The notes below the pieces were generated by a model that was not told where the DNA came from, did no database searches, and saw nothing but the letters and a program-made list of their open reading frames with translations. Shown in pieces: positions 34,154-49,063 of a stretch of DNA of 64,000 bases. The DNA is from a virus, in the IMG/VR virus record IMGVR_UViG_3300032214_000528, positions 32,001 to 96,000 of that record; one strand, 5' to 3'. A program made the translations under genes and the position numbers. Every line of letters starts with the position of its first letter. Position 1 is the first letter of the stretch.

Positions 34154-34165
34154 GGGGCAATAAAA

Positions 34166-35224
34166 ATGGATACAATTACTAAAGACAAGTTGGCTTCTAT
34201 TGGGGGCGACTTTTGGAATATCGTTTCAGAGTGCATAGCGCAAGGTGTGCATGAGGAAACTTCACTACGACTAAATGCAAAGGTATTACCTAGTGGTCGC
34301 TTTGTTGAGCGAGCAAGTGGCGCTGATAGAAAAGCGAGAGAGCGAGCAGGTGCTATGACTCCTAGTGGAGTAGATGTTGCTTCTTTCGAGGCTGATGATT
34401 TCTATGTTCGTCCTAATGGACAAAAGTATTTCACTCGTCAATGGGGAATTCATAAGGACATAGCAGTAATTCGCAAAGCAAGAGAAGCCACCTCAAAATA
34501 TAACTCAGAAGGAATTGGCGACCCACAGTTCGTCCTTCTCTATGGCGCTCCGGGAACTGGAAAAACTGCACTCATTGAGGCTTCATTTTCTGATGAAACT
34601 TTGCATACAATTATTGGAAGTGGAGATACAGAAGTATCTGACTTCTTAGGAAGTTTCGTTCAGACACCTAGTGGAAACTTTGAGTGGATTGACGGAGAAT
34701 TCGTCAAGGCAGTAGAAAATGGTGAGCCACTTCTAATCGACGAAATTGGTTTGATTGACCCTAAAGTTCTTTCATTTGCTTATGGTGCTATGGACGGACG
34801 AAAGGAATTCACAATTCCAATGAACCCTGATAGAGGCACTATCAAAATCCACCCTGACTTTTTCGTAGTGGGTGCGACTAACCCTAACGCTCCGGGAGTT
34901 CGACTTTCAGAGGCGTTGCTATCTCGTTTCGCAATTCAGGCAGAACTAACCACAGATTGGAAACTCGCTGAGAAGTTGGGCGTTCCTAAAACTATGGTGA
35001 GCGTTGCTCAAAATCTCTACAAGAGAAGTCAGGGCGATACTGCTGAAATCTCATGGTCGCCACAGATGAGAGAGTTGCTTGCTTTCCGTTCTACTGCCGA
35101 ACTATTTGGCACAGAGTTTGCGATTGCTAACTTAATCGCCAGCGCACCTGAACTCGACAGAGATGTGGTGGTTGATGTTATTGCTCGGGCGTATGGCGCT
35201 GAGCATAAGCCAGCAAAAATCTAG
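34166..35224 (+). CDS. MoxR/CbbQ/CobS-like AAA+ ATPase
   Basis: GAPGTGKT, LLIDEIG, ATNP, ALLSRF. Confidence 0.92.
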   Translation: MDTITKDKLASIGGDFWNIVSECIAQGVHEETSLRLNAKVLPSGRFVERASGADRKARERAGAMTPSGVDVASFEADDFYVRPNGQKYFTRQWGIHKDIAVIRKAREATSKYNSEGIGDPQFVLLYGAPGTGKTALIEASFSDETLHTIIGSGDTEVSDFLGSFVQTPSGNFEWIDGEFVKAVENGEPLLIDEIGLIDPKVLSFAYGAMDGRKEFTIPMNPDRGTIKIHPDFFVVGATNPNAPGVRLSEALLSRFAIQAELTTDWKLAEKLGVPKTMVSVAQNLYKRSQGDTAEISWSPQMRELLAFRSTAELFGTEFAIANLIASAPELDRDVVVDVIARAYGAEHKPAKI

Positions 35225-35366
35225 TTCCCTGCTAGATGTTGGCTAGTGGGGTGGGGGCTTCATGGGTGTAGCCCTCACCTACCACTCAGGGGTAAAAGCG
35301 AGGGAAAGCTTTGACTCCTACGATCAAAATTCGCAGGACTCACCTAGAGGCAGATAGCCCTAGATG

Positions 35367-35395
35367 TTGCAGGTAGATAGTTAAAAGTGTATGAT
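35367..35395 (+). promoter_or_regulatory. Promoter of the VWA gene
   Basis: TTGCAG-17-TATGAT. Confidence 0.75.
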
Positions 35396-35442
35396 AAACC
35401 TATCGTTGGACACACGATACAAAAGAGAAAAGGACGAACGAC

Positions 35443-37221
35443 ATGGCACACATTAAGCCACTAGAAACAAAAGGCTCAGGGGTCAAGACACCTACTGAGT
35501 GGCTACCAGTTGGCTACGAAATTGGATTGCTAGTTAATGAGTGGTCTGAGCGAAGCGACATTGTTGCTTGCATTGGCACAGACAAAGGTGAAGGCGCACC
35601 TGCTTGCTTTATCCCTTCACTCGCTGAGGTGCAGGTAAATACGATTGAGGCGTTTGGAGAAGGCATTACTCCTAATCTGATTGACGACCTTACAAAGCCA
35701 AAGAACCAGTTTGAGTTTCCAAAAGCAGTAGGTGCAATTATGCACGAAGCCTTCCACGCAAAGTTTTCTAGTTGGGATATTGCTCAGGCAGGTAAGGAAC
35801 TAAAGCAAGATGAGTTTCAGGCTTTGATGTTGCTAGAGGAAGGTCGCATTGAGGCACAGGGAATTATTGCTATGCCTAGAGCAAAGAACTTTTTGCGAGC
35901 AAGTGCTATGGGTTTAATTATTGACGAAGCAAAAGAAACTTTCGCTGATAACTCTAGCGTTGGGTCTGCTTGCCAGTTGGTGGGATTGGCTCATGCTCGT
36001 ATCGTTGCAGGGTCATTACTAGAAACAGAAGCAACAGATTTAATCAAGGCAGTAAATGATTTTCTAGGTGCTGACCTAGTTGCAAAGTTGATTGCAATTA
36101 TTGAGAAGTTCCAAAGCCACACTCGCCACTCAGATATTTCTGCTTGCTATCCATTAGCGATTGAGTGGGCTGAGTTGGTCAAGGAAGCAAAGAAGGAAAA
36201 GGGAGAACCTACTGCTGAGGAAATGCAGGAGTTCGCAAAGATGATGAGCGAACTTATGGCAGACATGGACTCAGAAGTTTCTGAAAATGTTTCAGATGAA
36301 CTATCAAAGCAACAGGACTCAGAGGCTATGAAAGAGTCTGCTGAAAAGAAGTCAATGAGTTCTAAAGAGCAAAAGAAAAATGAGGAAATCTCTCGTCAAG
36401 TATTCTCAAAGAGTTCAGGTCCCGGAGAATTCCGAACTGCCTCTAAGTTGATTGAGAAGCGAGCGCCTATTGCTTCTGAGAGAAGTGCGACAGTAAAGAT
36501 TGCTAGAGCATTGGAAAAAGCAAAGTATCGTGAGAAGGACATTACAGAAGTAGATAGCATTACACCTCCGGGGCGACTACGCACTAGAGCAATTATTCAG
36601 AGCAAGGCGCTTGCACAAAGAGGAATTCATAAGCAAGCAGAGGCTTTCCGCAAAACAGTTCGCAAGCACACAGACGAACCAACACTTTCAGTTGGAGTCA
36701 TGGTTGATATTTCAGGGTCAATGTCGAGTGCTATGCAACCAATGGCTTCTACTGCATGGATTATGTCTGAGGCAGTTCGTAGAGTTCAGGGTCAATGCGC
36801 TATGGTTTATTACGGCTCAGATGTTTTCCCAACACTCAAAGCAGGTCAGCGACTAAAAGATGTTTCAGTTTATTCTGCACCTGACGGAACAGAAAAGTTC
36901 GACCGAGCATTTCGTGCATTGGACGGCTCACTCAACCTTCTCAATGGAACTGGCGCTCGTTTGCTAGTAGTTGTGTCGGACGGACATTACACAAGTGAGG
37001 AAACCGAAATGGCTCAGCGTTGGCTAAAGGCTTGCACCCGAAATGGCGTTGCAGTTCTATGGCTTCCGATTGGCGACAATGGACGGCAAGCAGAGGAAAT
37101 CTGCAAAGGGGCGAACGCTCAGGTCGTGGCAGGGATTACCAGCCCAACCGAGTCGGCATTAGCGATTGGTCGCACCGCAGAGCGAGTCCTCTCAACCGCA
37201 GGGCAAAGGCAGGTCGCTTGA
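35443..37221 (+). CDS. CobT-like protein: N-terminal HExxH metallopeptidase-like domain plus C-terminal VWA
   Basis: HEAFH, LEEGRIE; VDISGSM MIDAS, VVVSDG. Confidence 0.85.
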   Translation: MAHIKPLETKGSGVKTPTEWLPVGYEIGLLVNEWSERSDIVACIGTDKGEGAPACFIPSLAEVQVNTIEAFGEGITPNLIDDLTKPKNQFEFPKAVGAIMHEAFHAKFSSWDIAQAGKELKQDEFQALMLLEEGRIEAQGIIAMPRAKNFLRASAMGLIIDEAKETFADNSSVGSACQLVGLAHARIVAGSLLETEATDLIKAVNDFLGADLVAKLIAIIEKFQSHTRHSDISACYPLAIEWAELVKEAKKEKGEPTAEEMQEFAKMMSELMADMDSEVSENVSDELSKQQDSEAMKESAEKKSMSSKEQKKNEEISRQVFSKSSGPGEFRTASKLIEKRAPIASERSATVKIARALEKAKYREKDITEVDSITPPGRLRTRAIIQSKALAQRGIHKQAEAFRKTVRKHTDEPTLSVGVMVDISGSMSSAMQPMASTAWIMSEAVRRVQGQCAMVYYGSDVFPTLKAGQRLKDVSVYSAPDGTEKFDRAFRALDGSLNLLNGTGARLLVVVSDGHYTSEETEMAQRWLKACTRNGVAVLWLPIGDNGRQAEEICKGANAQVVAGITSPTESALAIGRTAERVLSTAGQRQVA

Positions 37222-37287
37222 CCTAAGATAGGTTTTCTAGTCGGGTATCGTCCTTTTCAGCGTGTGTCCCCCCGATTAGGAAAAGAG

Positions 37288-37314
37288 AAGCCTCACCTAA
37301 TCGGTGGGGCTTTT
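37288..37314 (+). terminator. Intrinsic terminator
   Basis: AAGCCTCACC-TAATC-GGTGGGGCTT-TT. Confidence 0.75.
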
Positions 37315-37514
37315 CGCTTGTGGGGGTAAATTTTGATCGTAGAAGCTTTACGGCAAGTAGAGTTTTTACTTCCCGATAGCGCTTTTAATTTATTTAATTT
37401 TTGAGCGTGAGGTGCAGGAGCGGAGATAGGAAAAAATAATTCATTTTGATACTGGGTTTATTTGGATAGGTATGATAGGGTTGGGGCATAACAAGAAAAG
37501 GGAAAGGGAAAGAA

Positions 37515-37706
37515 ATGCAGATAAGAATTTTTCACGGCTTGACTTGTGAGGATTGCGATACGCAGAACTCTCTAGTCATAGACACAGGCTCGGATTGGAT
37601 AGATTGGGTTTGCCTTGATTGCCGAAACGAGTCGCACGAACTAATCCACCCTGACGACAGGGACGACATAGATTTGACCAAATTGGTCTATTCGATAGAG
37701 GGGTAA
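37515..37706 (+). CDS. Small Zn-ribbon protein
   Basis: CEDC...CLDC. Confidence 0.65.
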   Translation: MQIRIFHGLTCEDCDTQNSLVIDTGSDWIDWVCLDCRNESHELIHPDDRDDIDLTKLVYSIEG

Positions 37707-37708
37707 AA

Positions 37709-37936
37709 ATGGCGGAGATACATTATCTGATTGCATACAACACGGAAACAAAAAAGTGGGTTGCAGCGGACGAGGCTTTAGGTTCTTGGTTTAGGAACGG
37801 CCCGGTCTGGGAAGGTTCTCACGAGGACGGCAAGTGGAGATTTCTTAACTATGATGATGCTATTGAAATGGACACGGAATACGAAGCCAGCGAAACTGTC
37901 GGCAAGATACTCAAGCAACTAAATGGCGAGGGGTAA
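37709..37936 (+). CDS. Hypothetical protein
   Basis: 75 aa after AGGGGTAAAA. Confidence 0.7.
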   Translation: MAEIHYLIAYNTETKKWVAADEALGSWFRNGPVWEGSHEDGKWRFLNYDDAIEMDTEYEASETVGKILKQLNGEG

Positions 37937-37939
37937 AAA

Positions 37940-38395
37940 GTGGAAGCGGGTCTTTATGACTACTCCATTACTTATCACGGCATGAAACCGCATGATCAGC
38001 GTAGAGAGAGCGTGTTCTTTACTAACGGATTGGTTGCCACAGTAGAGATAGACGGATACGCCATAGACATTTACGCTGAGGGAAACACTCGCCTGAACTA
38101 CGCTAACGGAGATGACATTAGGATTTTTAGCACACCTGATGATTTTATTTATGGCGACTTGGAAACGGACGCAAAGCTTCAAGAGATACAAGATGACGAG
38201 GACTACTACTGGGTCAATAACAACTGGTTCGACCTCTACATAAAGGGAGAGCATTTAGATCAAGTTACCCACACCATTGACGAAGCCATTGAAAGTGCGA
38301 AGGCGATTGTCGCTGAACACATAGTCAATGTTTGCTTCATTGAAAATAACACGAAACCTATTTTGCATAAGGACGGGATTTTTGTAGAGGTATGA
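37940..38395 (+). CDS. Hypothetical acidic protein
   Basis: 151 aa, WVNNNWF. Confidence 0.7.
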   Translation: MEAGLYDYSITYHGMKPHDQRRESVFFTNGLVATVEIDGYAIDIYAEGNTRLNYANGDDIRIFSTPDDFIYGDLETDAKLQEIQDDEDYYWVNNNWFDLYIKGEHLDQVTHTIDEAIESAKAIVAEHIVNVCFIENNTKPILHKDGIFVEV

Positions 38396-38435
38396 TAGGA
38401 TAGGGTTGTAAGCAAATGACGAAGGGAAAATAAAA

Positions 38436-38927
38436 GTGCATTGTGTTCAGTTATTGTTTGTTGAGGCTGATACTCATCAAGACGCTATCGAGATAGTTGA
38501 TAGCAGACGAGAGGAAGCAGATTGGTCTGATTGGTCTGAGGTTGGTGGGCGTTGGTCAGGGATTTTTGGAGAAGGCGAACCAAACGCAATTCTTTATTCC
38601 AATGACCCTGAGAAGTGGGACAAGATGATAAAAGAGTTTTCTGATTACAGAGTGGCTCACATGAAGGAGTCATTGGCTGAAGTAGAAAAATCAGGTGAGA
38701 GTGTTGCTGAACTAATCAAGCACTACGACCCATTAGCCAATAACTTTGACTTGGGTATGAAGGGTTATTACTTGCGAAGGATTGGTTCACTACTTGCCGA
38801 TTACTGGACAAGCGATAGTGCGGTCTATGACTTAGAGGCTGGCACATCTAACTTGGCTTACTTGGCAGAGCGAACTGCAACAAACCCGAAAAAACAATTT
38901 ATGGTTGCGGTGGATTTCCACCACTAA
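38436..38927 (+). CDS. Conserved phage hypothetical protein
   Basis: MH...WSDWSEVGGRWSG...VAVDFHH pattern. Confidence 0.75.
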   Translation: MHCVQLLFVEADTHQDAIEIVDSRREEADWSDWSEVGGRWSGIFGEGEPNAILYSNDPEKWDKMIKEFSDYRVAHMKESLAEVEKSGESVAELIKHYDPLANNFDLGMKGYYLRRIGSLLADYWTSDSAVYDLEAGTSNLAYLAERTATNPKKQFMVAVDFHH

Positions 38928-38967
38928 AAATGTTATGATAGTTATCCAAATGACGAAGGGAAAGTAA

Positions 38968-39228
38968 ATGGAAAACGAAAGCGAGTTTATTACGGCTGGC
39001 GGTCTTGCCGAGTATCTCTCACAAGAGTATAAGGAAAGCGAGATTGTTTCCTACAATGTATACGGCAAGTCTGATGTTGAGTCCGACTTGGGTTGTGAGA
39101 TTACGGATGAACAATGGAAAGAGTTTATTCGGGAGTGGGAAAATGATGATGTTCTCAATGAAATTCGTGCCCAAAGTTGGATGTTGCTAATAGATAATCT
39201 TCGTCAAGAACTGGGGATTGACGAGTGA
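38968..39228 (+). CDS. Hypothetical protein
   Basis: Conserved leader. Confidence 0.7.
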   Translation: MENESEFITAGGLAEYLSQEYKESEIVSYNVYGKSDVESDLGCEITDEQWKEFIREWENDDVLNEIRAQSWMLLIDNLRQELGIDE

Positions 39229-39323
39229 GCCTTTGTGAGATTTGCGAGGCAAACGAAAAAGAGTATGCCGAAGGCAAGTGGTGCGCTTCGTGTAAAGATG
39301 ATTTCAAGGAGAGTGATGACTAA
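39225..39323 (+). CDS. CxxC microprotein (32 aa, not in ORF track)
   Basis: MSLCEICE...WCASC; GTGA/TAATG coupling on both sides. Confidence 0.6.
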   Translation: MSLCEICEANEKEYAEGKWCASCKDDFKESDD

Positions 39324-39499
39324 TGAGGCTTTGTAAGTTTTGTGGCTACGGCATACGGCTAGACAAGGCTGGCTGGTGGGTAGACCTAACGGGTGGAGAT
39401 GTGTGCGGTTGGGACGGCACGAACTCAGCTCACGAACCTAGACTTACTAGGCGAGATACGGCAGGGGTAAAAACGGATCAACGGAAGGAAGTGGCGTGA
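39323..39499 (+). CDS. Small hypothetical protein (58 aa, not in ORF track)
   Basis: MRLCKFCG...C...H; coupled on both sides. Confidence 0.55.
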   Translation: MRLCKFCGYGIRLDKAGWWVDLTGGDVCGWDGTNSAHEPRLTRRDTAGVKTDQRKEVA

Positions 39500-39732
39500 G
39501 AGTAAAAGATTTGATTGAGCAGTTGAGAGCCTATGACGGAGAGGACGAGTTGATTGTCTGCTACTGGGACAAAGAAACGGTGCATGGATACGGCTCGCCT
39601 GAAGTAACGGACGAGGAGTGGAGTGAGGTCATCGAAAGGTATAACAACGGTGAGTGGCATTTCCAAAGCTCGGCTGCCGAGGATTTTGTAGAGATAGTGC
39701 AAGAAGTGGTTTCCGAACGAATTACCGAGTAA
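39496..39732 (+). CDS. Hypothetical protein
   Basis: MRVKDLIEQL. Confidence 0.7.
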   Translation: MRVKDLIEQLRAYDGEDELIVCYWDKETVHGYGSPEVTDEEWSEVIERYNNGEWHFQSSAAEDFVEIVQEVVSERITE

Positions 39733-39790
39733 ATTATAAAAGGTATGATAGGCTTGCCTAGCAATACCAAATGACGAAAGGAACAGGGAA

Positions 39791-39934
39791 ATGGAAAAGA
39801 CAGTATGGGAGTCCTCAGTTACTGAGGAAATGATTTTTGACGCAGGTTTATCAAAGGCTGATGTAAAGCGTCTAGTAAAAGAGTTAGATGACGCAGTTAT
39901 GGAAATCTGCCAAAACTCAGGGATTGGGGGGTAA
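39791..39934 (+). CDS. Small hypothetical protein (47 aa, not in ORF track)
   Basis: Promoter, conserved leader, MEKTVWESSV. Confidence 0.65.
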   Translation: MEKTVWESSVTEEMIFDAGLSKADVKRLVKELDDAVMEICQNSGIGG

Positions 39935-39936
39935 AA

Positions 39937-40122
39937 ATGTTTTTCAATGGTTTCACTTTACTGATGATGATTATTGGGGCCGGGATCGGTTTTAGTTTTT
40001 CCCGTTGGGCTATCTCTACTCCATACCTAGTAGAAGCCCTATCTCAAAGAGTGGGATACGACTACGACAACGAGGGTCAGGTAATTATTTATACTGGACT
40101 CTACGCTGAGGCTGAAAAATAA
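39937..40122 (+). CDS. Small membrane protein
   Basis: N-terminal TM. Confidence 0.55.
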   Translation: MFFNGFTLLMMIIGAGIGFSFSRWAISTPYLVEALSQRVGYDYDNEGQVIIYTGLYAEAEK

Positions 40123-40236
40123 TTTGACGACACGCTCACCACGATTTGCACAAAGGTTATGATGAGTGTATTGTTCTACTTGTTCGGGTAAATCGCTCGG
40201 ACTTACAAAATGACTAAGAGAAAAAGGAAACGCCAA

Positions 40237-40626
40237 ATGGCTAACACCGAAGTATCATACGAAGTAGTGCAGGTAAAGGCTACAACAACAACAACAAAGA
40301 AAGCAGTAGTTTTAGATGAAACTAATGCGCTCGCACTAATCGCTAAAAAGAAACTAATCTCAGAAGCGATTGCAACACAAACTGCCGAGTTGGAAAAAAT
40401 CAAGGCAGAGATTTACGCCCTAATGGGTTGGGAAAAAGTCAAGGTCAATAAGAAAGATAAGTGGGTTGGCGAAGCAGAGGTTGGGCTTATCGCTGGCGAG
40501 GAACGAGTCAAGATTGACCTAAGGGAACGCACCGATTTTGACGGAGATGTTTTGTTCAATGACTACCGAGAGATTTACGACTTGGTGGCAAAGAAGTCAG
40601 AGTATCCCGTCCTAACCGCAAAGTAA
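40237..40626 (+). CDS. Hypothetical protein
   Basis: Own promoter (TTGCAC-17-TATTGT, 40146-40174) and terminator; start MANTEV. Confidence 0.75.
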   Translation: MANTEVSYEVVQVKATTTTTKKAVVLDETNALALIAKKKLISEAIATQTAELEKIKAEIYALMGWEKVKVNKKDKWVGEAEVGLIAGEERVKIDLRERTDFDGDVLFNDYREIYDLVAKKSEYPVLTAK

Positions 40627-40648
40627 TCTCCCTATTACTTAGCAAGAG

Positions 40649-40679
40649 AAAAGCCCTCACCGAAAGGTGGGGGTTTTTT
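40649..40679 (+). terminator. Intrinsic terminator
   Basis: GCCCTCACC-GAAA-GGTGGGGGT-TTTTT. Confidence 0.85.
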
Positions 40680-40821
40680 CTTTTGTGGCGAGGGGTAAAA
40701 AGCGAACGGCCGGGGATCAAGCTGGAGGGCCCGGAAAAAAGAATACGAGGTTCAAGAGCCCTAAATGCAGAAAGGTATGATAGGATTACCTTGTTCAGAC
40801 AAACTAGGGAAAGGCAAGACA

Positions 40822-41208
40822 ATGGACATAATGGAAAAGCACACGGTTGAATTGACTAGCGATTGCACTTGCACCAATGAGGACGGCACGCCTAGCACCG
40901 ATTGTTTTGATTGCTGGGACGACTCGGTATGGTTGTTCAAGGACTTGATGAACACTTGGCGTAAGACGGTCGGAGTAAATTGGAACACGGTTAGAATTAC
41001 TGGCCGGGGTATGGGTTGGCAACGCACTAGCGGAGAAGCCGTAGTGTCTTTCGATAAAGTGTTGGACGCACTAAAGATAAACGGGGACTTTACTTTACGG
41101 TTCAAGCAAGAGGGCTTAGTCCTTACGGCAACACGGTCAAGCCACGATGAGCCTACGGGTGCAGGGTTTTCTTTCACCCTTATCAAAGATGAAGAGGGAG
41201 AGGGGTAA
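40822..41208 (+). CDS. Hypothetical protein
   Basis: Start MDIMEK after GAAAGG; C..CFDCW, W.RTSG, SHDEPTG. Confidence 0.7.
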   Translation: MDIMEKHTVELTSDCTCTNEDGTPSTDCFDCWDDSVWLFKDLMNTWRKTVGVNWNTVRITGRGMGWQRTSGEAVVSFDKVLDALKINGDFTLRFKQEGLVLTATRSSHDEPTGAGFSFTLIKDEEGEG

Positions 41209-41211
41209 AAA

Positions 41212-41355
41212 GTGGGGAAAGATTATCTATCTATACTTATGGAGTGGAAGCCCGAGGGGGACTTTACCGAAGCTGATCTCTGGGACGCTATCGCTGAAGC
41301 CGAAGGCGTAGATGTAAGCGAGATAAGTGATAGGGACTTGACCGAGTTTATCTAG
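41212..41355 (+). CDS. Small acidic protein (not in ORF track)
   Basis: ...MEWKPEGDFTEADLWDAIAEAEGVDVSEI. Confidence 0.55.
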   Translation: MGKDYLSILMEWKPEGDFTEADLWDAIAEAEGVDVSEISDRDLTEFI

Positions 41356-41399
41356 CGGTTCGATTGTGAAAGTGCAGAAAGGTATGATAGGATAAAGGT

Positions 41400-41480
41400 A
41401 TCTCGGTGGGGGGAAGTCGCTGGTCACCTGAACGACCTGAAACCTAGGGGGTCGGAAACAATACGACTCCCCACCGAGTC
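41400..41480 (+). ncRNA. Candidate structured 5' leader/ncRNA
   Basis: Follows TTGTGA-18-TAGGAT; CTCGGTGGGG pairs with CCCCACCGAG and encloses AGTCG/CGACT and CGACC/GGTCG helices. Confidence 0.45.
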
Positions 41481-41502
41481 TATAACTAGGGAGAGGTAAA
41501 AA

Positions 41503-41622
41503 ATGAAAATAACGGACGATTATGATTACGCTAAAGATGTATGGCTAATAAAATGCGTAGAGTGTGGCGTAAGTATGAGCCGTGAAGCATACGCTTACGG
41601 ACACGATTGCGAGGTGGCGTAA
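41503..41622 (+). CDS. CxxC microprotein (39 aa, not in ORF track)
   Basis: MKITDDYDYAKDVWLIKCVECG...HDC. Confidence 0.6.
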   Translation: MKITDDYDYAKDVWLIKCVECGVSMSREAYAYGHDCEVA

Positions 41623-41888
41623 TGGGTATGAGAGGTGAGGTAGGTCGGTTTGATTTACAACAAGAAAAGATAACCGAGCTTAGATTGGCTAAGGCTAGAT
41701 TAGAGGATGCTCAAAAAGTTTTTTGGGAGTGTTTGCTAGGTTCTAGTAAAGCAGGAGTAACACACAGAGAGATTGCGGAAGCTACTGGATTTAGTCGTGC
41801 CAATGTAATGTATCACTTAAGAAAGATACAAGATAATAATCCTTTCTTTATAGGAGATGCCAATGCGAATAGGGGTAAAAAGAAATGA
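41622..41888 (+). CDS. Helix-turn-helix DNA-binding protein
   Basis: GVTHREIAEATGFSRANVMYHL. Confidence 0.8.
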   Translation: MGMRGEVGRFDLQQEKITELRLAKARLEDAQKVFWECLLGSSKAGVTHREIAEATGFSRANVMYHLRKIQDNNPFFIGDANANRGKKK

Positions 41889-42211
41889 ACGATCAAGACT
41901 CGATAAGCTGGGGAGAGCTGGCGGAATTGACTCACGCTACGCAGGTGGAACGATTTGGTTTTTGTATGTGTGAGGACAATGAAGGGAACGAAAACCCTTA
42001 TGCCGATTGTAATAAATACTACTCAACCGATTTATCTATCTCTATTGTGGAGATAAAGGCAGATAGCAAAGAACAAGCTGAAGCGATTATGCAAGAGTTT
42101 ATAGACAAGATTGCACCGATTATGGACGACAAGATTAGGTGGGACGAAGCTAACTGGGAGATTGAGGAAAGTGTCCTAGATAAGAAAGCTGGGGAGTGGA
42201 TAACAAACTAA
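41885..42211 (+). CDS. Hypothetical protein
   Basis: ISWGELAELTHATQVERFGFCMCED..PYADC. Confidence 0.65.
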   Translation: MNDQDSISWGELAELTHATQVERFGFCMCEDNEGNENPYADCNKYYSTDLSISIVEIKADSKEQAEAIMQEFIDKIAPIMDDKIRWDEANWEIEESVLDKKAGEWITN

Positions 42212-42311
42212 GACTCACCGAGGCTTGATTTGAAAATGTCAGGATAATCAAATACAATAAAGCTACTCGGTTACAGTAGCCGATTAACTAGGGAAAGAGT
42301 CAAATAAATAA

Positions 42312-42404
42312 ATGAGAACACTCCAAGAAAAACTAGATGCCGTGGCAAAAGATTTAGATGTTGTTATGGCTGATTTGTTAGATGAGCTTGGTCTAAATGA
42401 CTAA
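42312..42404 (+). CDS. Microprotein (30 aa, not in ORF track)
   Basis: MRTLQEKLDAVAKDLDVVMADLLDELGLND; sole ORF between a promoter (TTGAAA-17-TACAAT, 42230) and a terminator. Confidence 0.65.
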   Translation: MRTLQEKLDAVAKDLDVVMADLLDELGLND

Positions 42405-42416
42405 GTAGTCAGAGAG

Positions 42417-42450
42417 AAGCCCCCGCTAAAAGGCGGGGGTTTCTTTCTTT
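42417..42450 (+). terminator. Intrinsic terminator
   Basis: GCCCCCGC-TAAAAG-GCGGGGGT-TTCTTTCTTT. Confidence 0.85.
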
Positions 42451-42490
42451 ATAGGATAAACTTATAGGGGTAAAAAGAAAGGGAAAAGTT

Positions 42491-42796
42491 ATGGATCAGA
42501 TTATGGATACACGAACCGTTATGTTTATTGGAGATTATTTTTCAATGATGGTTACGGTAGGCGTTCCCGAAGAAGCGGTAAAAGAGGGCGAGATCTATGA
42601 AGATGCCTGTCTTAGAGTAGCTGGGACTTTAATGAAAGAACACTACGGCTGGGATGTTGTTGCCGTAAGTAATCACATAGGGGTTTTAGATGAGGGAGAC
42701 CCTAACTGCGAAACTTGTTATGGGGCTGGAAAGATGAAAGCCGAGGTAGCTGGTGTGGCAAGAGATGTAGAGTGCCCCGATTGTTTTAATGGTTAG
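42491..42796 (+). CDS. Hypothetical protein with C-terminal DnaJ-like CxxCxGxG
   Basis: CETCYGAG...CPDC. Confidence 0.65.
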   Translation: MDQIMDTRTVMFIGDYFSMMVTVGVPEEAVKEGEIYEDACLRVAGTLMKEHYGWDVVAVSNHIGVLDEGDPNCETCYGAGKMKAEVAGVARDVECPDCFNG

Positions 42797-42831
42797 GGGT
42801 AAAAAGTAGACTTACCGATTATGATAAGATT

Positions 42832-42940
42832 AGGTCACCGGGTCGAGCGAACTTCCCTTTCTGCTCCCCGTTGAGATAAGCACTTGTGCTTATCGCACCG
42901 CCCCTTGCTCTCCCTAGCAGGGGTGCGGTGTGTCTAATTG
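42832..42940 (+). ncRNA. Candidate three-hairpin sRNA with C-rich loops
   Basis: After TATGAT/TAAGAT -10; hairpins 42839-42870 (loop CTTCCCT), 42875-42894 and 42894-42932 (loop CTCCCT); no + strand ORF. Confidence 0.55.
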
Positions 42941-42994
42941 TAATTATTATAGAGATTAGATAAGCTAGATCTAAATCGACAAGAGGGGTAAAAA

Positions 42995-43252
42995 ATGACA
43001 AACAACACAATTCAACTCACCGAGTATTTAAATAAAGAGTGGGGACAATTAATAGGGGCAAAACTTTTAAGTATTAGAAGCGCTACCGAAGATGAAGCAG
43101 ATGAGATGATGGGCTGGGACTTTAGCAACCATCACGCTGTGCCGATTTTAGAGTTTGACAATGGGCTAAGCCTAATTCTTTCTCAAGATGAAGAAGGTAA
43201 TGGCGCAGGGTTTGCGTTTCTAGTTGAGGAAAGTCAGGAAGGTGTGTTATAG
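42995..43252 (+). CDS. Hypothetical protein
   Basis: LILSQDEEGNGAGF motif. Confidence 0.75.
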   Translation: MTNNTIQLTEYLNKEWGQLIGAKLLSIRSATEDEADEMMGWDFSNHHAVPILEFDNGLSLILSQDEEGNGAGFAFLVEESQEGVL

Positions 43253-43275
43253 TTATCCTACTCGCAGGGAGCGAG
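43224..43275 (+). promoter_or_regulatory. Promoter plus 5' AGGGA hairpin
   Basis: TTGAGG-18-TATAGT; CTCGC-AGGGA-GCGAG. Confidence 0.7.
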
Positions 43276-43290
43276 AGAAAAAGAGGGAAA

Positions 43291-43626
43291 ATGAAAACAG
43301 CCGTGAAAGTTACAACAGAGGGAACAGTCTCTGTGATTGACCTACAAGCAGACAGCAACGAGTTGGGAACTTTACAGAGTGCCGTTGGTGGTTTGATTGA
43401 GGTAGCAACTCTACAAAGTGGATACACAATGTTTATGAACGAAGAAGGAAAAATCCACGAACTTCCAATCAACGAGAAAGCCACCGCAATTTGGTTGGCT
43501 AACTTCCCTAACTTCCCTGATGTAATCTTGGGAGATGTTGTTCTAGCAGGAGCAACAGACGAAGAAGGAGAACAACTAGGGCTAGACCCCGACTACGCAC
43601 AACGCTTGGTCGAACTTCTAGCATAA
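43291..43626 (+). CDS. DUF3846-like protein
   Basis: LQSAVGGLIE, MNEEGK..LPINEKAT, ILGDVVLAG. Confidence 0.85.
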   Translation: MKTAVKVTTEGTVSVIDLQADSNELGTLQSAVGGLIEVATLQSGYTMFMNEEGKIHELPINEKATAIWLANFPNFPDVILGDVVLAGATDEEGEQLGLDPDYAQRLVELLA

Positions 43627-43637
43627 AAGTAGTAGAG

Positions 43638-43665
43638 GAACCCCTGCCGAGAGGTGGGGGTTTTT
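43638..43665 (+). terminator. Intrinsic terminator
   Basis: AACCCCTGCC-GAGA-GGTGGGGGTT-TTT. Confidence 0.85.
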
Positions 43666-43718
43666 CTATTGTATAGGGGTAAAAATCAGGGTTCACCGAT
43701 CAAGGTATCTTTAGAGGT

Positions 43719-43961
43719 ATGCAAATAGTTCAGAAGGTTTATCACCCTAACGGGAGTTCAGCTCCGTTTGTTGTGGCAATAGTTGATGACCCTGCCGAGG
43801 CAGATACTAAATTAGTTATTATGTTTGAAGAACCCGAGTGCACTGCGGTTTTCTCTTTAGATGGTCTTATTCAAGATGAAGACATTTCAGAGAAAAACTC
43901 TAGTCACGCCGAGCGTTATGAATACGCTTTGCGTGATGAGCTGTGGGATAATCGTTACTAG
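43719..43961 (+). CDS. Hypothetical protein
   Basis: YHPNGSSAPFVVAIVDD. Confidence 0.7.
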   Translation: MQIVQKVYHPNGSSAPFVVAIVDDPAEADTKLVIMFEEPECTAVFSLDGLIQDEDISEKNSSHAERYEYALRDELWDNRY

Positions 43962-43973
43962 GGGTAAAAAACT

Positions 43974-44543
43974 ATGACAACAATAGCGAGTGTTCAAGGT
44001 GATGGCTGGGCTGTTGTTGGTTATGACTCAAGAGTTACCGAGGAAGATGGCAGAACTTATACCTTGCCGAAAGAAGCAGGAAAAGTTTTTAAGAGTGGTA
44101 ATTACATAATTGGTGTTGCGGGAGATGTTAGAGCAATCAATTTAATGACTCACGTTTTTAAGGCACCGCCTTGCACAGGATCAACTTTAGGGGTAAAACT
44201 AGATAAGTTTATGACTGCGGTCTTTATCCCGGAACTAAAGAAATGTTTTGAGGAAGCCTCTTACTCAAAAGATGGCGACCAAGAAAGTCAGATTATGATT
44301 TTAATAAATGGAACTATCTACGAGATAGGCGAAGATTATTCTTGGTGCCACGACATTGCGGGTATCTATGCTATTGGTTCAGGTGCCGACTTTGCTTTAG
44401 GTGCGCTCAATGCTTTATCAGAGGGCAAGAACAGAACTCTTACTACTGCAAGAGCAACGATCAAAACTGCGCTCGCCGTCTCAGCTAAGTTCGATAATAA
44501 GACTTCCGAACCTTTTTACCTCTTGACTCAATACCGAGACTAG
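43974..44543 (+). CDS. Proteasome beta/HslV-like Ntn-hydrolase peptidase, copy 2
   Basis: M-T1TIA, D17-S-R19, GKV, AIGSG. Confidence 0.85.
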   Translation: MTTIASVQGDGWAVVGYDSRVTEEDGRTYTLPKEAGKVFKSGNYIIGVAGDVRAINLMTHVFKAPPCTGSTLGVKLDKFMTAVFIPELKKCFEEASYSKDGDQESQIMILINGTIYEIGEDYSWCHDIAGIYAIGSGADFALGALNALSEGKNRTLTTARATIKTALAVSAKFDNKTSEPFYLLTQYRD

Positions 44544-44647
44544 CAATCCCCACAAACTGCGCCATTGGTGTAGTGGTCTTGATTGATTTGGAACTTCTGC
44601 CCACACTTCCAACAGTTGATGTAAATCATTACTGCTTTTCTAGCCAT
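44540..44647 (-). CDS. CxxC microprotein (35 aa, not in ORF track)
   Basis: MARKAVMIYINCWKCG...VCGDC; own promoter (TATGAT at 44684-44679) and AAAGGGAG RBS. Confidence 0.7.
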   Translation of the reverse strand: MARKAVMIYINCWKCGQKFQINQDHYTNGAVCGDC

Positions 44648-44721
44648 TATGTTTCTCCCTTGTTTGGCTTGTAGGATTATCATAACAGATTTTCCTGACA
44701 AACTCTAAGACACGCCGAGAG

Positions 44722-44750
44722 TTGCAAAGTGCAGGAAGGTCTGTTATTAT
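44722..44750 (+). promoter_or_regulatory. Promoter with conserved spacer
   Basis: TTGCAA-AGTGCAGGAAGGTCTGT-TATTAT. Confidence 0.8.
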
Positions 44751-44776
44751 TTTCTTATAGGGAAAGGAAAACAAAA

Positions 44777-44983
44777 ATGTGGGGATTACCTGATAGCGCA
44801 ATCTTGGGAACTATCAAAAGCCTAAAGAGTCATAAGGGCGGAAGAAAAAGTAGTGCCGTATCAAAGCCAAGCAGAGAGATAACTCTTGCTCAATCTTGGG
44901 AGTGTTTTGACCAAGACTCTAGAAGCCTAGAGGAACTACTTGCTATGGCTCGCCTAACTATAAAGAAGCAACACGCCGAATAA
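44777..44983 (+). CDS. Hypothetical protein with LAQxWxxFDQDSRSLEELL motif
   Basis: Paralog motif of 5276-5467. Confidence 0.7.
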   Translation: MWGLPDSAILGTIKSLKSHKGGRKSSAVSKPSREITLAQSWECFDQDSRSLEELLAMARLTIKKQHAE

Positions 44984-44992
44984 GCAGGGAAG

Positions 44993-45045
44993 TTGCAAAG
45001 TGCAGGAAGGTCGTGTAGTATTTACTTATTGGCTAAGGGAGCCAA
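44993..45045 (+). promoter_or_regulatory. Promoter plus 5' AGGGA hairpin
   Basis: TTGCAA-AGTGCAGGAAGGTCGTG-TAGTAT; TTGGC-TAAGGGA-GCCAA. Confidence 0.8.
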
Positions 45046-45061
45046 AGAAAGCAGGGAGAAA

Positions 45062-45217
45062 ATGAAAACACAAGCAAAGTTTATTCGTCGCAGAATTGCC
45101 GTTGGAGTTATTGCGCTCGCCCTTATCGCTTGGGCGTTTGACGCTACAACACCTGAAATGTGCAAAGTTCCAACAGAGCAGATGAACCAATTCTGCCTAG
45201 ACCTGTTGTATCCATAA
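45062..45217 (+). CDS. Small membrane protein
   Basis: MKTQAKFIRRRIAVG.. TM. Confidence 0.65.
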   Translation: MKTQAKFIRRRIAVGVIALALIAWAFDATTPEMCKVPTEQMNQFCLDLLYP

Positions 45218-45229
45218 GGGGGAGAGCAA

Positions 45230-45466
45230 ATGCCTAGACTTAGAAAACCTCAACCGATTTTGTTAAATGATGATGAACTCTATGCGCTTATGCTAGCCAC
45301 ATTTAAACACCCTAAAGTTCCTAAATGGAAGCCAACAGGTTATGAACTAGGGCTACTAAAAGACGCTTACGAAAAAATTGCTACAGAGTATTACGCTCGA
45401 GCCGAAGAACAACAACGCATTGACGAGGAACTACGACTAATAAGAGCAGAATACGAGGGGGTTTAA
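45230..45466 (+). CDS. Hypothetical protein
   Basis: 78 aa with RBS. Confidence 0.6.
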   Translation: MPRLRKPQPILLNDDELYALMLATFKHPKVPKWKPTGYELGLLKDAYEKIATEYYARAEEQQRIDEELRLIRAEYEGV

Positions 45467-45468
45467 GT

Positions 45469-45675
45469 ATGAGCGAAGAAGGTTCAGAGTCATACAACAA
45501 AGCAAAACAAAGATGGGGTAAGGGAGAAGAACTTACAGACCAAGAGTTCGCCTGTCTTTTAATGAGGTCTTGCGGAGTCTCTAATTTAGTTGGGGCTTTA
45601 GGTTATGGACACGCTAACGAGTGCGGTTTTTGTGATGGGTCTAAACAAGTAGACCCTAGAAGTTATAGGGGGTAA
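45469..45675 (+). CDS. Hypothetical protein
   Basis: 68 aa, CGFC. Confidence 0.55.
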   Translation: MSEEGSESYNKAKQRWGKGEELTDQEFACLLMRSCGVSNLVGALGYGHANECGFCDGSKQVDPRSYRG

Positions 45676-45679
45676 AAAG

Positions 45680-45871
45680 ATGATGTTTGATCTTGGCTTT
45701 GGGCTACCGACTTATTTAGCTCATCTAACTATTGGGGTTGGTCGCTACACCCTTTGGCTCAACATTGTGGCTACTAACTGGAGAACCTTTCACTTTGGCA
45801 AAAGGTGGGGCGACTGGGTTGGTTGTTTCTCTGTCTTTACTTTTGCTTACACTATAAAAGAGAGGGGGTAA
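45680..45871 (+). CDS. Hypothetical aromatic-rich protein
   Basis: 63 aa between two AGGGGGTAAAAA motifs. Confidence 0.5.
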   Translation: MMFDLGFGLPTYLAHLTIGVGRYTLWLNIVATNWRTFHFGKRWGDWVGCFSVFTFAYTIKERG

Positions 45872-45873
45872 AA

Positions 45874-46050
45874 ATGTATTTAGATACGGGAACCTTGTTT
45901 GCAATAGTGATTGCGCTCGCTGGCTCATGCTTTGTTATGGTAGTTGGTATCAGAGCGCAGGGTCAGTTGCACCGAGTCATTAACCAAAAGAACGAGAAGA
46001 TCAGATTTCTCCAAGCCGAACTACTAAAAGAAAAGAGAGTAACTCAATAG
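45874..46050 (+). CDS. Small membrane/coiled-coil protein
   Basis: MYLDTGTLFAIVIALAG.. Confidence 0.65.
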   Translation: MYLDTGTLFAIVIALAGSCFVMVVGIRAQGQLHRVINQKNEKIRFLQAELLKEKRVTQ

Positions 46051-46244
46051 TGAAGATTGAAAAGATTACAGATGAGGCAGTTCGCCTTTACGAAGGTGGG
46101 CTATCTCTAGAGGCAGTAGCCAAAGAACTAGGCGTTGCCTACCGAACCGCAAGAAAGGCTGTCTACGGGGCTGGAGTGGTCGTTAGAGACCCCTCTAATC
46201 GTTTAGTGGGCAGAACTAGACCTGATAAGAGAGTGAGCGCATGA
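46050..46244 (+). CDS. Helix-turn-helix protein
   Basis: LYEGGLSLEAVAKELGVAYRTAR. Confidence 0.8.
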   Translation: MKIEKITDEAVRLYEGGLSLEAVAKELGVAYRTARKAVYGAGVVVRDPSNRLVGRTRPDKRVSA

Positions 46245-46396
46245 ATACCAACAACATAGTTTGGACAGCAGTCGTATCCCTAGCCCTTGGCTTGGCTTGC
46301 CTTGTGGCAGGTTATCAAGGTAATGACTCAATGGCGCTCGCCTTTGGGTTAACCTCAGTAGCCTCAGCAACTCTATCTGCTAGAGAGAAGCGATAA
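46241..46396 (+). CDS. Small two-TM protein (51 aa, not in ORF track)
   Basis: MNTNNIVWTAVVSLALGLACLVAG.. Confidence 0.6.
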   Translation: MNTNNIVWTAVVSLALGLACLVAGYQGNDSMALAFGLTSVASATLSAREKR

Positions 46397-46415
46397 AGCT
46401 TTAAGGCTTTCTAAG

Positions 46416-46454
46416 TGCGGGAAGGTAGGAAAAACCTGCCTTCCTGCATTTTTT
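46416..46454 (+). terminator. Intrinsic terminator
   Basis: TGCGGGAAGGTAGG-AAAAA-CCTGCCTTCCTGCA-TTTTTT. Confidence 0.8.
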
Positions 46455-46711
46455 ATGGAGCATTTAGGTTTTATTATAGATTTAAGGCTGTCAGCAGGGG
46501 ATTTACGCTTAGAGTGTGAAATAAACCTCAATCTGATAGGCTAAAAAAGTGTCGGATTAACCTGACATTGCGGTATAGTTTATCCAAGCAAGACAAGTGA
46601 CATAAGGAGATCTACGGATTAGACACTTGAAGTAAGGCTGTCCCCAAGAGCGGGGTGGCAAGGCTGTTAACACTTATAGCCTGTCCCTGTCCCCTAACAA
46701 AGGAAAACCAA

Positions 46712-47284
46712 ATGAAGCAATCTCTAAAGCAACGCCATTTGCAGGAGTTGATAGCACTAATGTCTTTGACAGTAGTTCTAGCCTCTACCGCAGTAGCAGT
46801 AGCGCAGAGTCCAGAGCAAATGGAACCAGTTCAACAAGTTGTAGTAGTTCCAGAAGTAGTAGAAGTAAAACCGAAGCTTTCAGACTTTGAGAACAAAACC
46901 TCTCTCACCGATACAGAATTGAGAGATCTTCTCATTGCAGTTGGCTTTGAAGGCAAAGCCCTTCGCATTGCGTGGGCTATTGCAAAGAAGGAGTCCAATG
47001 GTCGCCCGCTTGCTTTCAATGGCAACGCAAAAACAGGCGATAGTTCCTACGGTGTCTATCAAATCAACATGATTGGTGACTTAGGCCCGGATCGAAGAAT
47101 TAAGTTTTCACTTGATTCAAACTCAGACCTTTTCAATCCAGTAATCAACGCTCAAATTGCTCACCACATGAGCAAGGGTGGAGAAGATTTTTCCGCATGG
47201 AAGATCTCCAAGAGCGACTATAATAGTGCTACGGCGGAACCTAAGTTTCAAATGTGGCTTAAGAAGTTCCCCGAAGGAAAGTAG
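46712..47284 (+). CDS. Secreted lytic transglycosylase (SLT/lysozyme-like)
   Basis: Signal peptide; AIAKKES catalytic Glu, SYGVYQIN, LFNPVINA, FSAW. Confidence 0.85.
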   Translation: MKQSLKQRHLQELIALMSLTVVLASTAVAVAQSPEQMEPVQQVVVVPEVVEVKPKLSDFENKTSLTDTELRDLLIAVGFEGKALRIAWAIAKKESNGRPLAFNGNAKTGDSSYGVYQINMIGDLGPDRRIKFSLDSNSDLFNPVINAQIAHHMSKGGEDFSAWKISKSDYNSATAEPKFQMWLKKFPEGK

Positions 47285-47289
47285 GAAAC

Positions 47290-47712
47290 ATGAGCGAAGA
47301 ACTCAGACCCCTAGTAGGTTCAATAGTTCCGCCTGTGGTGACACCTGCGGAAGAGCCAAAGCCAACCCCTGCGCTCGCAGTTGAGCCAAAGGTTGAAGAG
47401 GTCAAAGAAGTAAAGAAGGAAATCAAGTCAGCCCCAAAGGTTAAGAGAGATGCCAACACAATTATTTCTCTTTCTGCTTTGAAGGTTGGTGCTATGGCTG
47501 GTAACTCTTCTTCTGTTCAGACTGTTCAGTTGCGTCTTAAAGACCTAGGTTTTGACGCAGTTGTTCGAGATAAGTTTGGCAGACTAGGAGAAGGAAGTGT
47601 TGAAGCGATCAACGCTTACCGAAAGTCAGTAGGCTTAGAAGAGTGCGGTTGCTTTAATGAAGAAGTTCTCGCTTATCTCTTTGACGGTCTAGATGTAGGA
47701 GTTGGAGCGTAG
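47290..47712 (+). CDS. Peptidoglycan-binding-like domain protein
   Basis: VQTVQLRLKDLGF...G.LGEGSVEAINAYRK. Confidence 0.6.
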   Translation: MSEELRPLVGSIVPPVVTPAEEPKPTPALAVEPKVEEVKEVKKEIKSAPKVKRDANTIISLSALKVGAMAGNSSSVQTVQLRLKDLGFDAVVRDKFGRLGEGSVEAINAYRKSVGLEECGCFNEEVLAYLFDGLDVGVGA

Positions 47713-47820
47713 TAGCTACCTTTCCAATTTCTATCAGCGCCCAGTTGCTCAAGTAAAATTGAGAGGCTGGGCGTTGGTATTTCTAGCGCCTAAGTGCGGG
47801 ACATTGAAAGGACAGCACTC

Positions 47821-48102
47821 ATGGCAGTAATCAAGAAAGAAAAGAACAAGCAGTTCGAGAAAACTAAGATGATTGTTTCAAGAGTCATTGCGGTTTTCGC
47901 TGCGTCAGGATTATCAGTAGTCGGTGCTGGCTCTATTGTCGGTATTGAACTAACTCAAGCAGTAACCCTTGCGGGTGCTCTTGGTGTTGCTACTGTCTTG
48001 GAAGCGTTGGCTCGTGCCTACCTTGCAGACGGAAAATTAACTACTGCCGAAATCGATCAAGCCTTTGCTTTGGTTGATAAGGGTAGAAGTTCTTCTTCTT
48101 AA
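47821..48102 (+). CDS. Holin-like membrane protein
   Basis: Two hydrophobic segments, DGKLTTAEIDQAF. Confidence 0.55.
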   Translation: MAVIKKEKNKQFEKTKMIVSRVIAVFAASGLSVVGAGSIVGIELTQAVTLAGALGVATVLEALARAYLADGKLTTAEIDQAFALVDKGRSSSS

Positions 48103-48117
48103 TTCTGAAAAGCAAAG

Positions 48118-48153
48118 AACCCCCCAACCTTTGCGGTTGAGGGGTTTTTTGTT
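48118..48153. terminator. Terminator between convergent genes
   Basis: CCCCCAACC-TTTGC-GGTTGAGGGG-TTTTTT. Confidence 0.75.
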
Positions 48154-48161
48154 TGACGGAT

Positions 48162-48302
48162 TTACTTAGAGTTCTTTAGTTCTGTTAGCCACATTTCTAG
48201 AAGTTCAGCCCTTGCGGTGTTGCCTTCCGATAGTGCCTCTAGAAGTTGTTTTGTTATTTGTTCAATTGTTCTGTCGTTGATCAGTTGTGAAGTTGAAGCC
48301 AT
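48162..48302 (-). CDS. Small hypothetical protein
   Basis: MASTSQLIND.. after AGGGA RBS. Confidence 0.6.
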   Translation of the reverse strand: MASTSQLINDRTIEQITKQLLEALSEGNTARAELLEMWLTELKNSK

Positions 48303-48395
48303 TTCCCTACTTCCTTTCTTGTTCGATTGGGTCTTGAAGTAATGCAATTGCAGTTCCTAGAACCCCTGCGATTATTGCTACGGTTGCTATTAACA

Positions 48396-48518
48396 TTATG
48401 CCCCCAAAATAAAACATAGAGCGATTGCAACTGCTACACCAACAAAAGCGCCAATAGGTGCGCCAACATCAGCGTTTTCATCAAGCCAGTCAATTACTGC
48501 GGTGAATGGATTTGTCAT
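48396..48518 (-). CDS. Small membrane protein (40 aa)
   Basis: MTNPFTAVIDWLDE..; own promoter and hairpin leader. Confidence 0.7.
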   Translation of the reverse strand: MTNPFTAVIDWLDENADVGAPIGAFVGVAVAIALCFILGA

Positions 48519-48533
48519 TTTGTTTCTCCCTTT

Positions 48534-48587
48534 TGGTTCTCCCTGAACCATTGATAAAACTATAAACCTTCTTCCTGACATTTGCAA
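48534..48587 (-). promoter_or_regulatory. Promoter plus 5' AGGGA hairpin
   Basis: TTGCAA-ATGTCAGGAAGAAGGTT-TATAGT; TGGTTC-AGGGA-GAACCA. Confidence 0.8.
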
Positions 48588-48646
48588 GAGACACGCCCAA
48601 CAAAAAACCCCCCGATTTCTCGAGGGGTTCTTCGGGGAGTTGGTCA

Positions 48647-48913
48647 TTAAACCTCTGTAGCCCTGCCGTCCTCAACTTGCTTGAGGAAGTCTTGAACTAT
48701 CTCTAGTGCGTCCTTTCGTCCTTGAAGTCCTCTGAACTTTGGAAGTCCGATTTGATCTCCGATAAGTCTTGCAAAAGTGCGGAGAGCAGGTTCTGAAGTC
48801 ATTTGCATTTTACTTCCGCCGTATGTCTTGATTTCAAGTTCTAGTGACATTTTGATTAGTTCAAGTTGGATAGGGCTAACTGCTAACTCTACGGTCATTG
48901 GTGATGTTGTCAT
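48647..48913 (-). CDS. Hypothetical protein
   Basis: Own promoter, leader and terminator (48601-48630). Confidence 0.75.
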   Translation of the reverse strand: MTTSPMTVELAVSPIQLELIKMSLELEIKTYGGSKMQMTSEPALRTFARLIGDQIGLPKFRGLQGRKDALEIVQDFLKQVEDGRATEV

Positions 48914-48935
48914 TTTGTTTCTCCCTTTTGTTTTT

Positions 48936-48990
48936 CGGTTCTCCCTGAACCGTTAGGAAAAGAATACATGACCTTCCTGACATTTGTCAA
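48936..48990 (-). promoter_or_regulatory. Promoter plus 5' AGGGA hairpin
   Basis: TTGACA-AATGTCAGGAAGGTCATG-TATTCT; CGGTTC-AGGGA-GAACCG. Confidence 0.85.
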
Positions 48991-49023
48991 GATAAGATCA
49001 AAAAGCTTTTACGGCGTGTCGGG

Positions 49024-49063
49024 AAAAGAAAAACCCCCCCGAGGGAAGTCAGGGGGGTTAGTT
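49024..49063 (-). terminator. Intrinsic terminator with CTTCCCT loop
   Basis: CCCCCCTG-ACTTCCCT-CGGGGGGG-TTTTTCTTTT on the minus strand. Confidence 0.8.

Follow-up and report, generated by a model that had tools for sequence, protein, structure and literature searches.

A conserved stop-codon hairpin in the MoxR operon of an uncultured phage whose loop covaries with the operon's own Shine-Dalgarno regions

A hairpin (H1) that holds the stop codon of a MoxR-type ATPase gene in an uncultured phage displays a pyrimidine-rich apical loop, and across relatives this loop covaries with the Shine-Dalgarno (SD) regions of the two-cistron operon that ends in it. H1 lies in IMG/VR virus record IMGVR_UViG_3300032214_000528, of which we analyzed a window of 64,000 nucleotides (bases 32001-96000); positions below are those of the window unless a relative is named. 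The structure of H1, its strand and the covariation between loop and SD are established. Judging from the sequences and from known systems, we consider it reasonably likely that the loop, in some lineages together with the 3' arm, is an anti-SD for the SDs of its own operon and that it would pair there with repressive effect. An initial annotation, made from the letters of the window alone, had grouped H1 with two other C-rich hairpins, and the sequences at all three places (35219-35237, 40621-40640 and 49032-49059) are exactly as it described them. The three are nevertheless different things and not one class, and two of them are without the support that H1 has: the first appears to be a well-supported conserved anti-SD element of unusual form, the second is a weak candidate for such a function, and the third is ordinary.

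Structure and conservation of the MoxR stop hairpin

The elements at the 3' end of the MoxR gene (34166-35224) are as follows.

35208-35244, plus strand: H1, a two-tier hairpin defined by its fold, conservation and pair counts, spanning the five final codons of MoxR and its TAG stop (35222-35224)
35225-35231, plus strand: apical loop of H1, UUCCCUG, the proposed anti-SD
35245-35286, plus strand: H2, a strong GC-rich hairpin directly 3' of H1, without a U tract

The comparison set consisted of 45 syntenic IMG/VR loci with MoxR identities of 53-94%, from which 29 distinct relatives were used for the H1 folds, 28 representative loci for loop counts and 17 lineages for permutation tests. The lower stem of H1 pairs the last coding bases with 35238-35244; an internal loop follows, and then the upper stem (35219-35237), which has 6 base pairs (bp), the TAG stop in its 5' arm and the 7-nucleotide (nt) loop TTCCCTG. 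At the MoxR stop, the best fold in 27 of the 29 distinct relatives is a hairpin that includes the stop codon. The third base of this codon forms a G-C pair in 14 sequences and an A-U pair in 12, with no mismatches, and among the post-stop bases, which are free of coding constraint, several positions show four pair types. In an alignment of 19 matches to a covariance model of H1, most of them orthologues, 94.2% of cells are paired and 8 of 14 pairs show compensatory (both-side) changes; none of 500 shuffles reached any observed measure, and pairing fell to 22-48% in a control in which the partners were slid. G-U pairs are frequent on the sense strand only, and because they would be A-C mismatches on the opposite strand, H1 is a sense-strand RNA structure. 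H1 is hence a strongly conserved, covarying hairpin, and its loop is C-rich across relatives (C 46%, U 41%, A 8% and G 5%, or 87% pyrimidine).

The neighboring H2 is probably a terminator or a 3'-end protector; in relatives, the TTGACA promoter of the next gene, which encodes a vWA domain, comes after it. All relatives have a G-rich 5' arm and a C-rich 3' arm in H2, and an apical UGGGUGU(CC) is common to several lineages. Several other roles for H1 were considered and rejected. Kissing between the H1 and H2 loops was dropped as it would involve about 3 bp only, and the H1 loop is far too short for an antiterminator competing with the H2 stem. Read-through of the MoxR stop is opposed by an in-frame stretch past the TAG that is short and unconserved among relatives, and an antisense gene start opposite H1 by a complement with no following start codon.

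Pairing of the loop with the Shine-Dalgarno regions of the operon

The operon begins with a gene for a protein of 151 amino acids (33698-34153), to which no family could be assigned, and continues with MoxR. Both cistrons have their SD in or beside a hairpin.

33660-33697, plus strand: leader of the first gene (33698-34153), with a hairpin at 33660-33678 (loop UUUGGGG) and then the SD GAAAGGA
34145-34161, plus strand: small MoxR SD hairpin, with the SD UAGGGGG (34151-34157) in its loop, 8 nt upstream of the MoxR ATG at 34166

For each lineage, the best Watson-Crick complement of the loop was sought in the upstream 1.7 kilobases (kb), which hold the operon. In most lineages this complement falls in the SD region of one cistron (the first gene or MoxR) or in those of both, and it is exact over 7-8 nt and lineage-specific; complements of 7-10 nt at operon SDs occur in 12 of the 17 lineages, and the first-gene SD is the site matched in many relatives. 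The matched words are rare within the loci of 16-21 kb, and at several loci the complement carried by the hairpin itself is the sole other copy. When the hand-read loops were permuted among the 17 lineages, the longest match averaged 6.3 for loops kept with their own genome and 4.5 for reassigned ones, and the duplex energy was −9.8 against −6.8 kcal/mol, with none of 100,000 permutations as good (p about 1e-5 or less). A judgement-free probe, consisting of a fixed 14 nt from the third stop base and compared with −22 to −2 of both start codons, gave matches of 6.8 against 4.95 and energies of −12.1 against −8.8 kcal/mol, values that no permutation out of 200,000 equalled (p about 5e-6), while the reverse-complement (antisense) probe gave no signal in the same permutation test (3.5 against 3.6).

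The matched stretches include SD flanks that would not pair with the tail of 16S rRNA, so the H1 loop tracks the mRNA and not the ribosome. The initial annotation had taken a generic AGGGA(G) leader as the partner of the C-rich loops; the MoxR loop instead matches lineage-specific SDs of the two cistrons of its own operon. Kissing of H1 with a loop in the 5' leader of the MoxR operon was also tried and rejected, as it fits three near lineages and the distant lineages have no G-rich leader loop. The SDs, rather than the leader loop, are the consistent predicted partner of the H1 loop.

Some observations weigh against reading the H1 loop as an anti-SD. In the phage of the window itself the best partner of the loop is the MoxR SD, and their complementarity is modest: 4 Watson-Crick bases, or a 7-bp duplex with 3 G-U pairs, at about −7 kcal/mol for the loop alone. 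One lineage (L012 type) has a UUUA loop and no SD match within H1, and in another (L009 type) the H1 loop is U-rich and the SD complement lies in the stem, in its 3' arm. The permutation p values are not strict probabilities, because the lineages are related. Finally, when all stop-codon hairpins were scanned against upstream starts, 67 matches were obtained against 33 in the control, most of them noise, and no general principle emerged.

The two deviating lineage types have features of their own. In L012 (about 7190-7230), L013 and L015 the stop hairpin of the vWA gene has a C-rich loop with 7 nt complementary to the MoxR SD region, and in the L012-type lineage the putative anti-SD appears to have moved by one gene. 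At the MoxR stop of L009-L011 (about 11050-11085) the complement of the MoxR SD, located in the 3' arm, is paired with an SD-like 5' arm; this stop hairpin is, by its predicted fold, an internal SD/anti-SD mimic and not a displayed loop.

The second and third hairpins and a three-hairpin small RNA

The remaining C-rich hairpins, their candidate partners and a related small RNA (sRNA) are located as follows.

40621-40640, plus strand: site 2 hairpin, with a 7-bp stem, the loop CUCCCU (40628-40633) and the TAA stop of gene 40210-40626 in its 5' arm
40648-40679, plus strand: intrinsic terminator after site 2, with a GC stem and a U tract
41486-41495, plus strand: SD region (SD at 41487) of an open reading frame (ORF) of 39 amino acids (41503-41622), the best partner of the site 2 loop
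42832-42935, plus strand: stand-alone sRNA, about 100 nt long, that folds into three hairpins and has a −10 box of its own
L012 12518-12626, L017 17890-18002, L020 20409-20523 and L022 14651-14765: sRNA orthologues, found as covariance-model matches
49032-49059, minus strand: site 3, the intrinsic terminator of the 49072-49344 gene; a U tract follows its GC stem, and UUCCCU lies in the loop
49364-49386, minus strand: AGGGA-loop leader hairpin of the 49344 transcript
48936-48952 (minus strand), 48534-48550 (minus strand) and 45029-45045 (plus strand): sister AGGGA-loop leader hairpins

H1 and the site 2 hairpin are alike in having AU-rich stems that overlap a stop codon. Compared with a Rho-independent terminator, whose GC stem and U tract are present in site 3 and at 40648-40679, neither these two hairpins nor H2 has a U tract. 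Three near lineages retain the TCCCT of site 2, and only two of these have a clear stem; in distant relatives the stop codon here forms part of the GUAA loop of a small hairpin, and a terminator follows. The initial annotation had proposed that the C-rich 3' loops act as anti-SDs, by 5'-3' pairing or as 3'-derived RNAs working in trans. At the MoxR site this proposal gains support from the natural covariation of loop and SD; at site 2 it fails for the gene's own SD, with which the loop has no match. No SD in the 135-kb genome other than the best partner of the site 2 loop, at 41486-41495, has an 8-mer complementary to that loop. The stretch at 41486-41495 is also complementary over 10 nt to the apex of sRNA hairpin 3, whose 8-mer is identical to that of the site 2 loop. 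In relatives, the corresponding site 2 loops match UAGGGA-type SDs of downstream genes, and orthologues of the leader of the 39-amino-acid ORF were resolved in the closest relative only. Site 2 may thus be a weaker relative of the H1 idea, a weak candidate aimed at UAGGGA-type SDs of other phage genes, and its data, which come from few lineages, would fit action in trans. The partner leader belongs to a transcription unit at 41370-41890 (plus strand), which has a long leader hairpin at about 41404-41480, the 39-amino-acid ORF with a CxxC motif and, overlapping it, a gene for a small helix-turn-helix protein (41622-41888).

The sRNA itself displays CUUCCCU and CUCCCU in apical loops, and its middle loop, UUG in this phage, is C-rich in relatives. 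Compensatory changes were found in 8 pairs among 8 sequences, and the covariance-model matches stand at the syntenic position in distant relatives, where the loops again have a CCC core. This conservation makes a wider network of SD and anti-SD sequences plausible.

Site 3 is an ordinary intrinsic terminator. Among 23 loci of its gene, the UUCCCU loop is present in the closest relative only, and the others have AUCCA, GAAA or GAGA. The transcript of 49072-49344 had been described as beginning with an AGGGA hairpin and having a AAAGGGAG SD, and both are present. The 5' hairpin has a covarying stem, a G-rich loop in 12 of 16 distinct sequences and a retained SD. Since orthologues lose the terminator loop but retain the G-rich loop at the 5' end, the proposal that the ends of this transcript kiss is unsupported, and the claim that both ends carry complementary loops falls with the unconserved terminator loop in orthologues, the very outcome that the initial annotation had named as counting against it. 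The promoters at 44722, 44993, 48590, 48990 and 49420, which lie upstream of AGGGA-loop leaders, form a class with a common TGCAGGAAGG or TGTCAGGAAGG spacer element.

C-rich loops are no general feature of 3' ends in these phages. Stop-proximal loops in the 28 representative loci include 53 with CCC and 52 with GGG, which rules out such a feature, and in this genome TCCCT stands inside a hairpin loop at 7 of 35 intergenic occurrences, barely above chance (p = 0.03, uncorrected). Given that there is no general rule of C-rich loops for 3' untranslated regions (UTRs), each site was judged by its orthologues. The statement that stems are unrelated while loops are conserved holds across the orthologues of the MoxR site, and it does not hold as a rule for 3' UTRs, as the site 2 loop is kept in near relatives only and the site 3 loop in the closest relative only.

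Proposed mechanism, known systems and alternatives

The H1 loop would pair with the SDs of the 151-amino-acid gene and of MoxR either in cis, as a 5'-3' contact, or in trans, in which case a stable 3' fragment would be protected by H2. Such pairing would lower ribosome loading, and cleavage of the duplex may be triggered by it, as in icaR. Because the stop codon sits in the H1 stem, each terminating ribosome would be expected to melt the hairpin, so that the loop would be displayed only while the 3' end is untranslated and its display would depend on translation. Whereas the fold and the covariation are read directly from the alignments, we infer the pairing in the cell, the repression and the sensitivity to translation. 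A bolder version regards the stop hairpin as a translation sensor that shows its anti-SD on idle mRNAs only, and thereby as a self-locking off switch or a device for handing ribosomes over from stop to start; with the three-hairpin sRNA and the G-rich loops of the leaders added, it would constitute an SD/anti-SD code by which the phage times its early genes without protein factors. This version is speculative and we hold it to be rather unlikely.

Pairing between the 3' end and the SD of one bacterial mRNA has been documented experimentally in very few cases so far. In icaR of Staphylococcus aureus, the nearest counterpart of H1 among those studied by experiment, a UCCCCUG in the 3' UTR pairs with the UAGGGGG SD of its own mRNA, which blocks the initiation complex and makes a substrate for RNase III, in cis or in trans (PMC3868564). 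The authors of that study regarded this contact between 5' and 3' UTRs as a singular example (PMC3868564). H1 resembles it in opposing a C-rich 3' motif to its own SD (loop UUCCCUG, MoxR SD UAGGGGG), and the features of the icaR type are found here, namely a 3' complement of the SD of the same transcript and compensatory changes on both sides, in this case by natural covariation. The two differ in geometry, since the icaR motif lies 260 nt past the stop and the H1 loop 0-5 nt past it, in the apical loop of the stop-codon hairpin. They also differ in their support, which is experimental for icaR and natural covariation for H1, the latter in a two-cistron operon of a phage with a probable actinobacterial host. 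Staphylococcal UCCC-loop sRNAs likewise pair C-rich apical loops with G-rich ribosome-binding sites, often by loop-loop contact and free of chaperones. The 6C sRNA of Actinobacteria, too, engages G-rich ribosome-binding sites through its C-rich loops in a chaperone-free manner (PMC6486639). C-rich apical loops are common to these RNAs and H1, the difference being that the former are independent transcripts with many targets and H1 is part of an mRNA. It is the analogy with icaR and 6C from which H1 is read as a repressive anti-SD of its own operon. There are also 3'-UTR-derived sRNAs that end at the terminator of the mRNA, such as s-SodF of Streptomyces. H1 shares with them a layout in which the mRNA closes with a seed and, after it, a terminator hairpin, and differs in that its apparent target is the parent operon.

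Against the repressive reading within the operon, it may be argued that all the C-rich loops, those of H1, of site 2 and of the three-hairpin sRNA, are parts of a single trans-acting network, in which 3'-UTR fragments ending in a terminator would accumulate and, in the manner of 6C or the staphylococcal UCCC-loop RNAs, titrate G-rich SDs and AGGGA leader loops of many phage or host mRNAs, the parent operon being one target of many. This seems unlikely to us, though less so than the other alternatives. It is favored by the conserved stand-alone sRNA with two or three C-rich loops 7.6 kb downstream, by the 8-mer shared between the site 2 loop and sRNA hairpin 3 with its single complementary SD in the genome, by a relative (L039) in which the matched 8-mer occurs at three further SDs, and by the conservation of G-rich leader loops. 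In most lineages, however, no copy of the matched 7-8-mer lies outside the SDs of the operon itself (in the 16-21 kb loci compared), and the loops track lineage-specific SD flanks rather than the common AGGGA core. The same tracking of flanks, which vary by lineage and are not complementary to the 16S tail, makes it improbable that H1 is merely a structural 3'-end element that stabilizes the mRNA or aids termination together with H2, with its pyrimidine loop and SD complementarity as by-products, for instance because the loop resembles the 3' tail of 16S rRNA, itself an SD complement. A strong GC hairpin always adjoins H1, as a structural element would suggest, one lineage keeps the hairpin without any SD complement (UUUA loop), and another has a U-rich loop and its complement in the 3' arm; the ordinary terminator loops of this phage, however, are GNRA-like.

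The least probable of the alternatives, in our view, is a positive role akin to a bacterial closed loop, in which pairing would place the stop codon beside the starts of the operon and a ribosome melting H1 would free the SD for re-initiation. The location of the stop codon within the stem in nearly all relatives and the matching of the SDs of both cistrons in several lineages would suit such a role, and the sequence is equally compatible with activation and with repression. No bacterial precedent was found, however, and the known anti-SD pairings repress (PMC3868564). We therefore retain the repressive anti-SD as the preferred reading of H1. The geometry it implies is unusual, with the loop of a hairpin that holds a stop codon matched to two cistrons, and the uncultured phage family supplies many natural compensatory changes for this contact between 3' end and SD, so that the idea can be tested directly with short RNAs and reporters. 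It is suggested that phages of Hfq-less hosts, probably Actinobacteria, may use C-rich loops as gene-specific anti-SDs.

Genome context and further sequence observations

The phage genome is complete, with 135,031 bp, direct terminal repeats and a G+C content of 43%, and the region 24.8-48 kb is occupied by many short genes on the plus strand that have promoters and terminators of their own. The gene at 34166-35224 encodes an AAA_5/MoxR-type ATPase. A megablast search against a phage collection gave no match, and a protein search led to distant actinophages only. Judged by its proteins, the phage is closest among named relatives to the metagenome-assembled Actinomycetia phage DSL-LC01; Microbacterium and Gordonia phages come next, and the host is probably actinobacterial. 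A look-up of public RNA runs gave none for this sequence. An Rfam search, at gathering and at sub-threshold level, returned no relevant family, 6C included; one tRNA passes the gathering threshold and the sub-threshold matches are terminator look-alikes.

A short motif, GGGGTAAAA(A), recurs on the plus strand at 28068, 35289, 37322, 39464, 40693, 42474 and 42797, a few bases past terminators or stops and with no start codon behind it; at the equivalent positions, distant relatives have AAAAAGTAAAAA. The same GGGGTAAAA(A) serves as SD and spacer directly upstream of ATG or GTG at about 39925, 41200, 41875, 42985, 45666 and 45863. The copies that lack a start may be phage promoters, processing signals or decoys for ribosomes. 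At 37215-37330 (plus strand), the TAA stop of the vWA gene lies in a small hairpin, which is followed by a hairpin with a C/U-rich interior, a terminator and a GGGGGTAAA motif.

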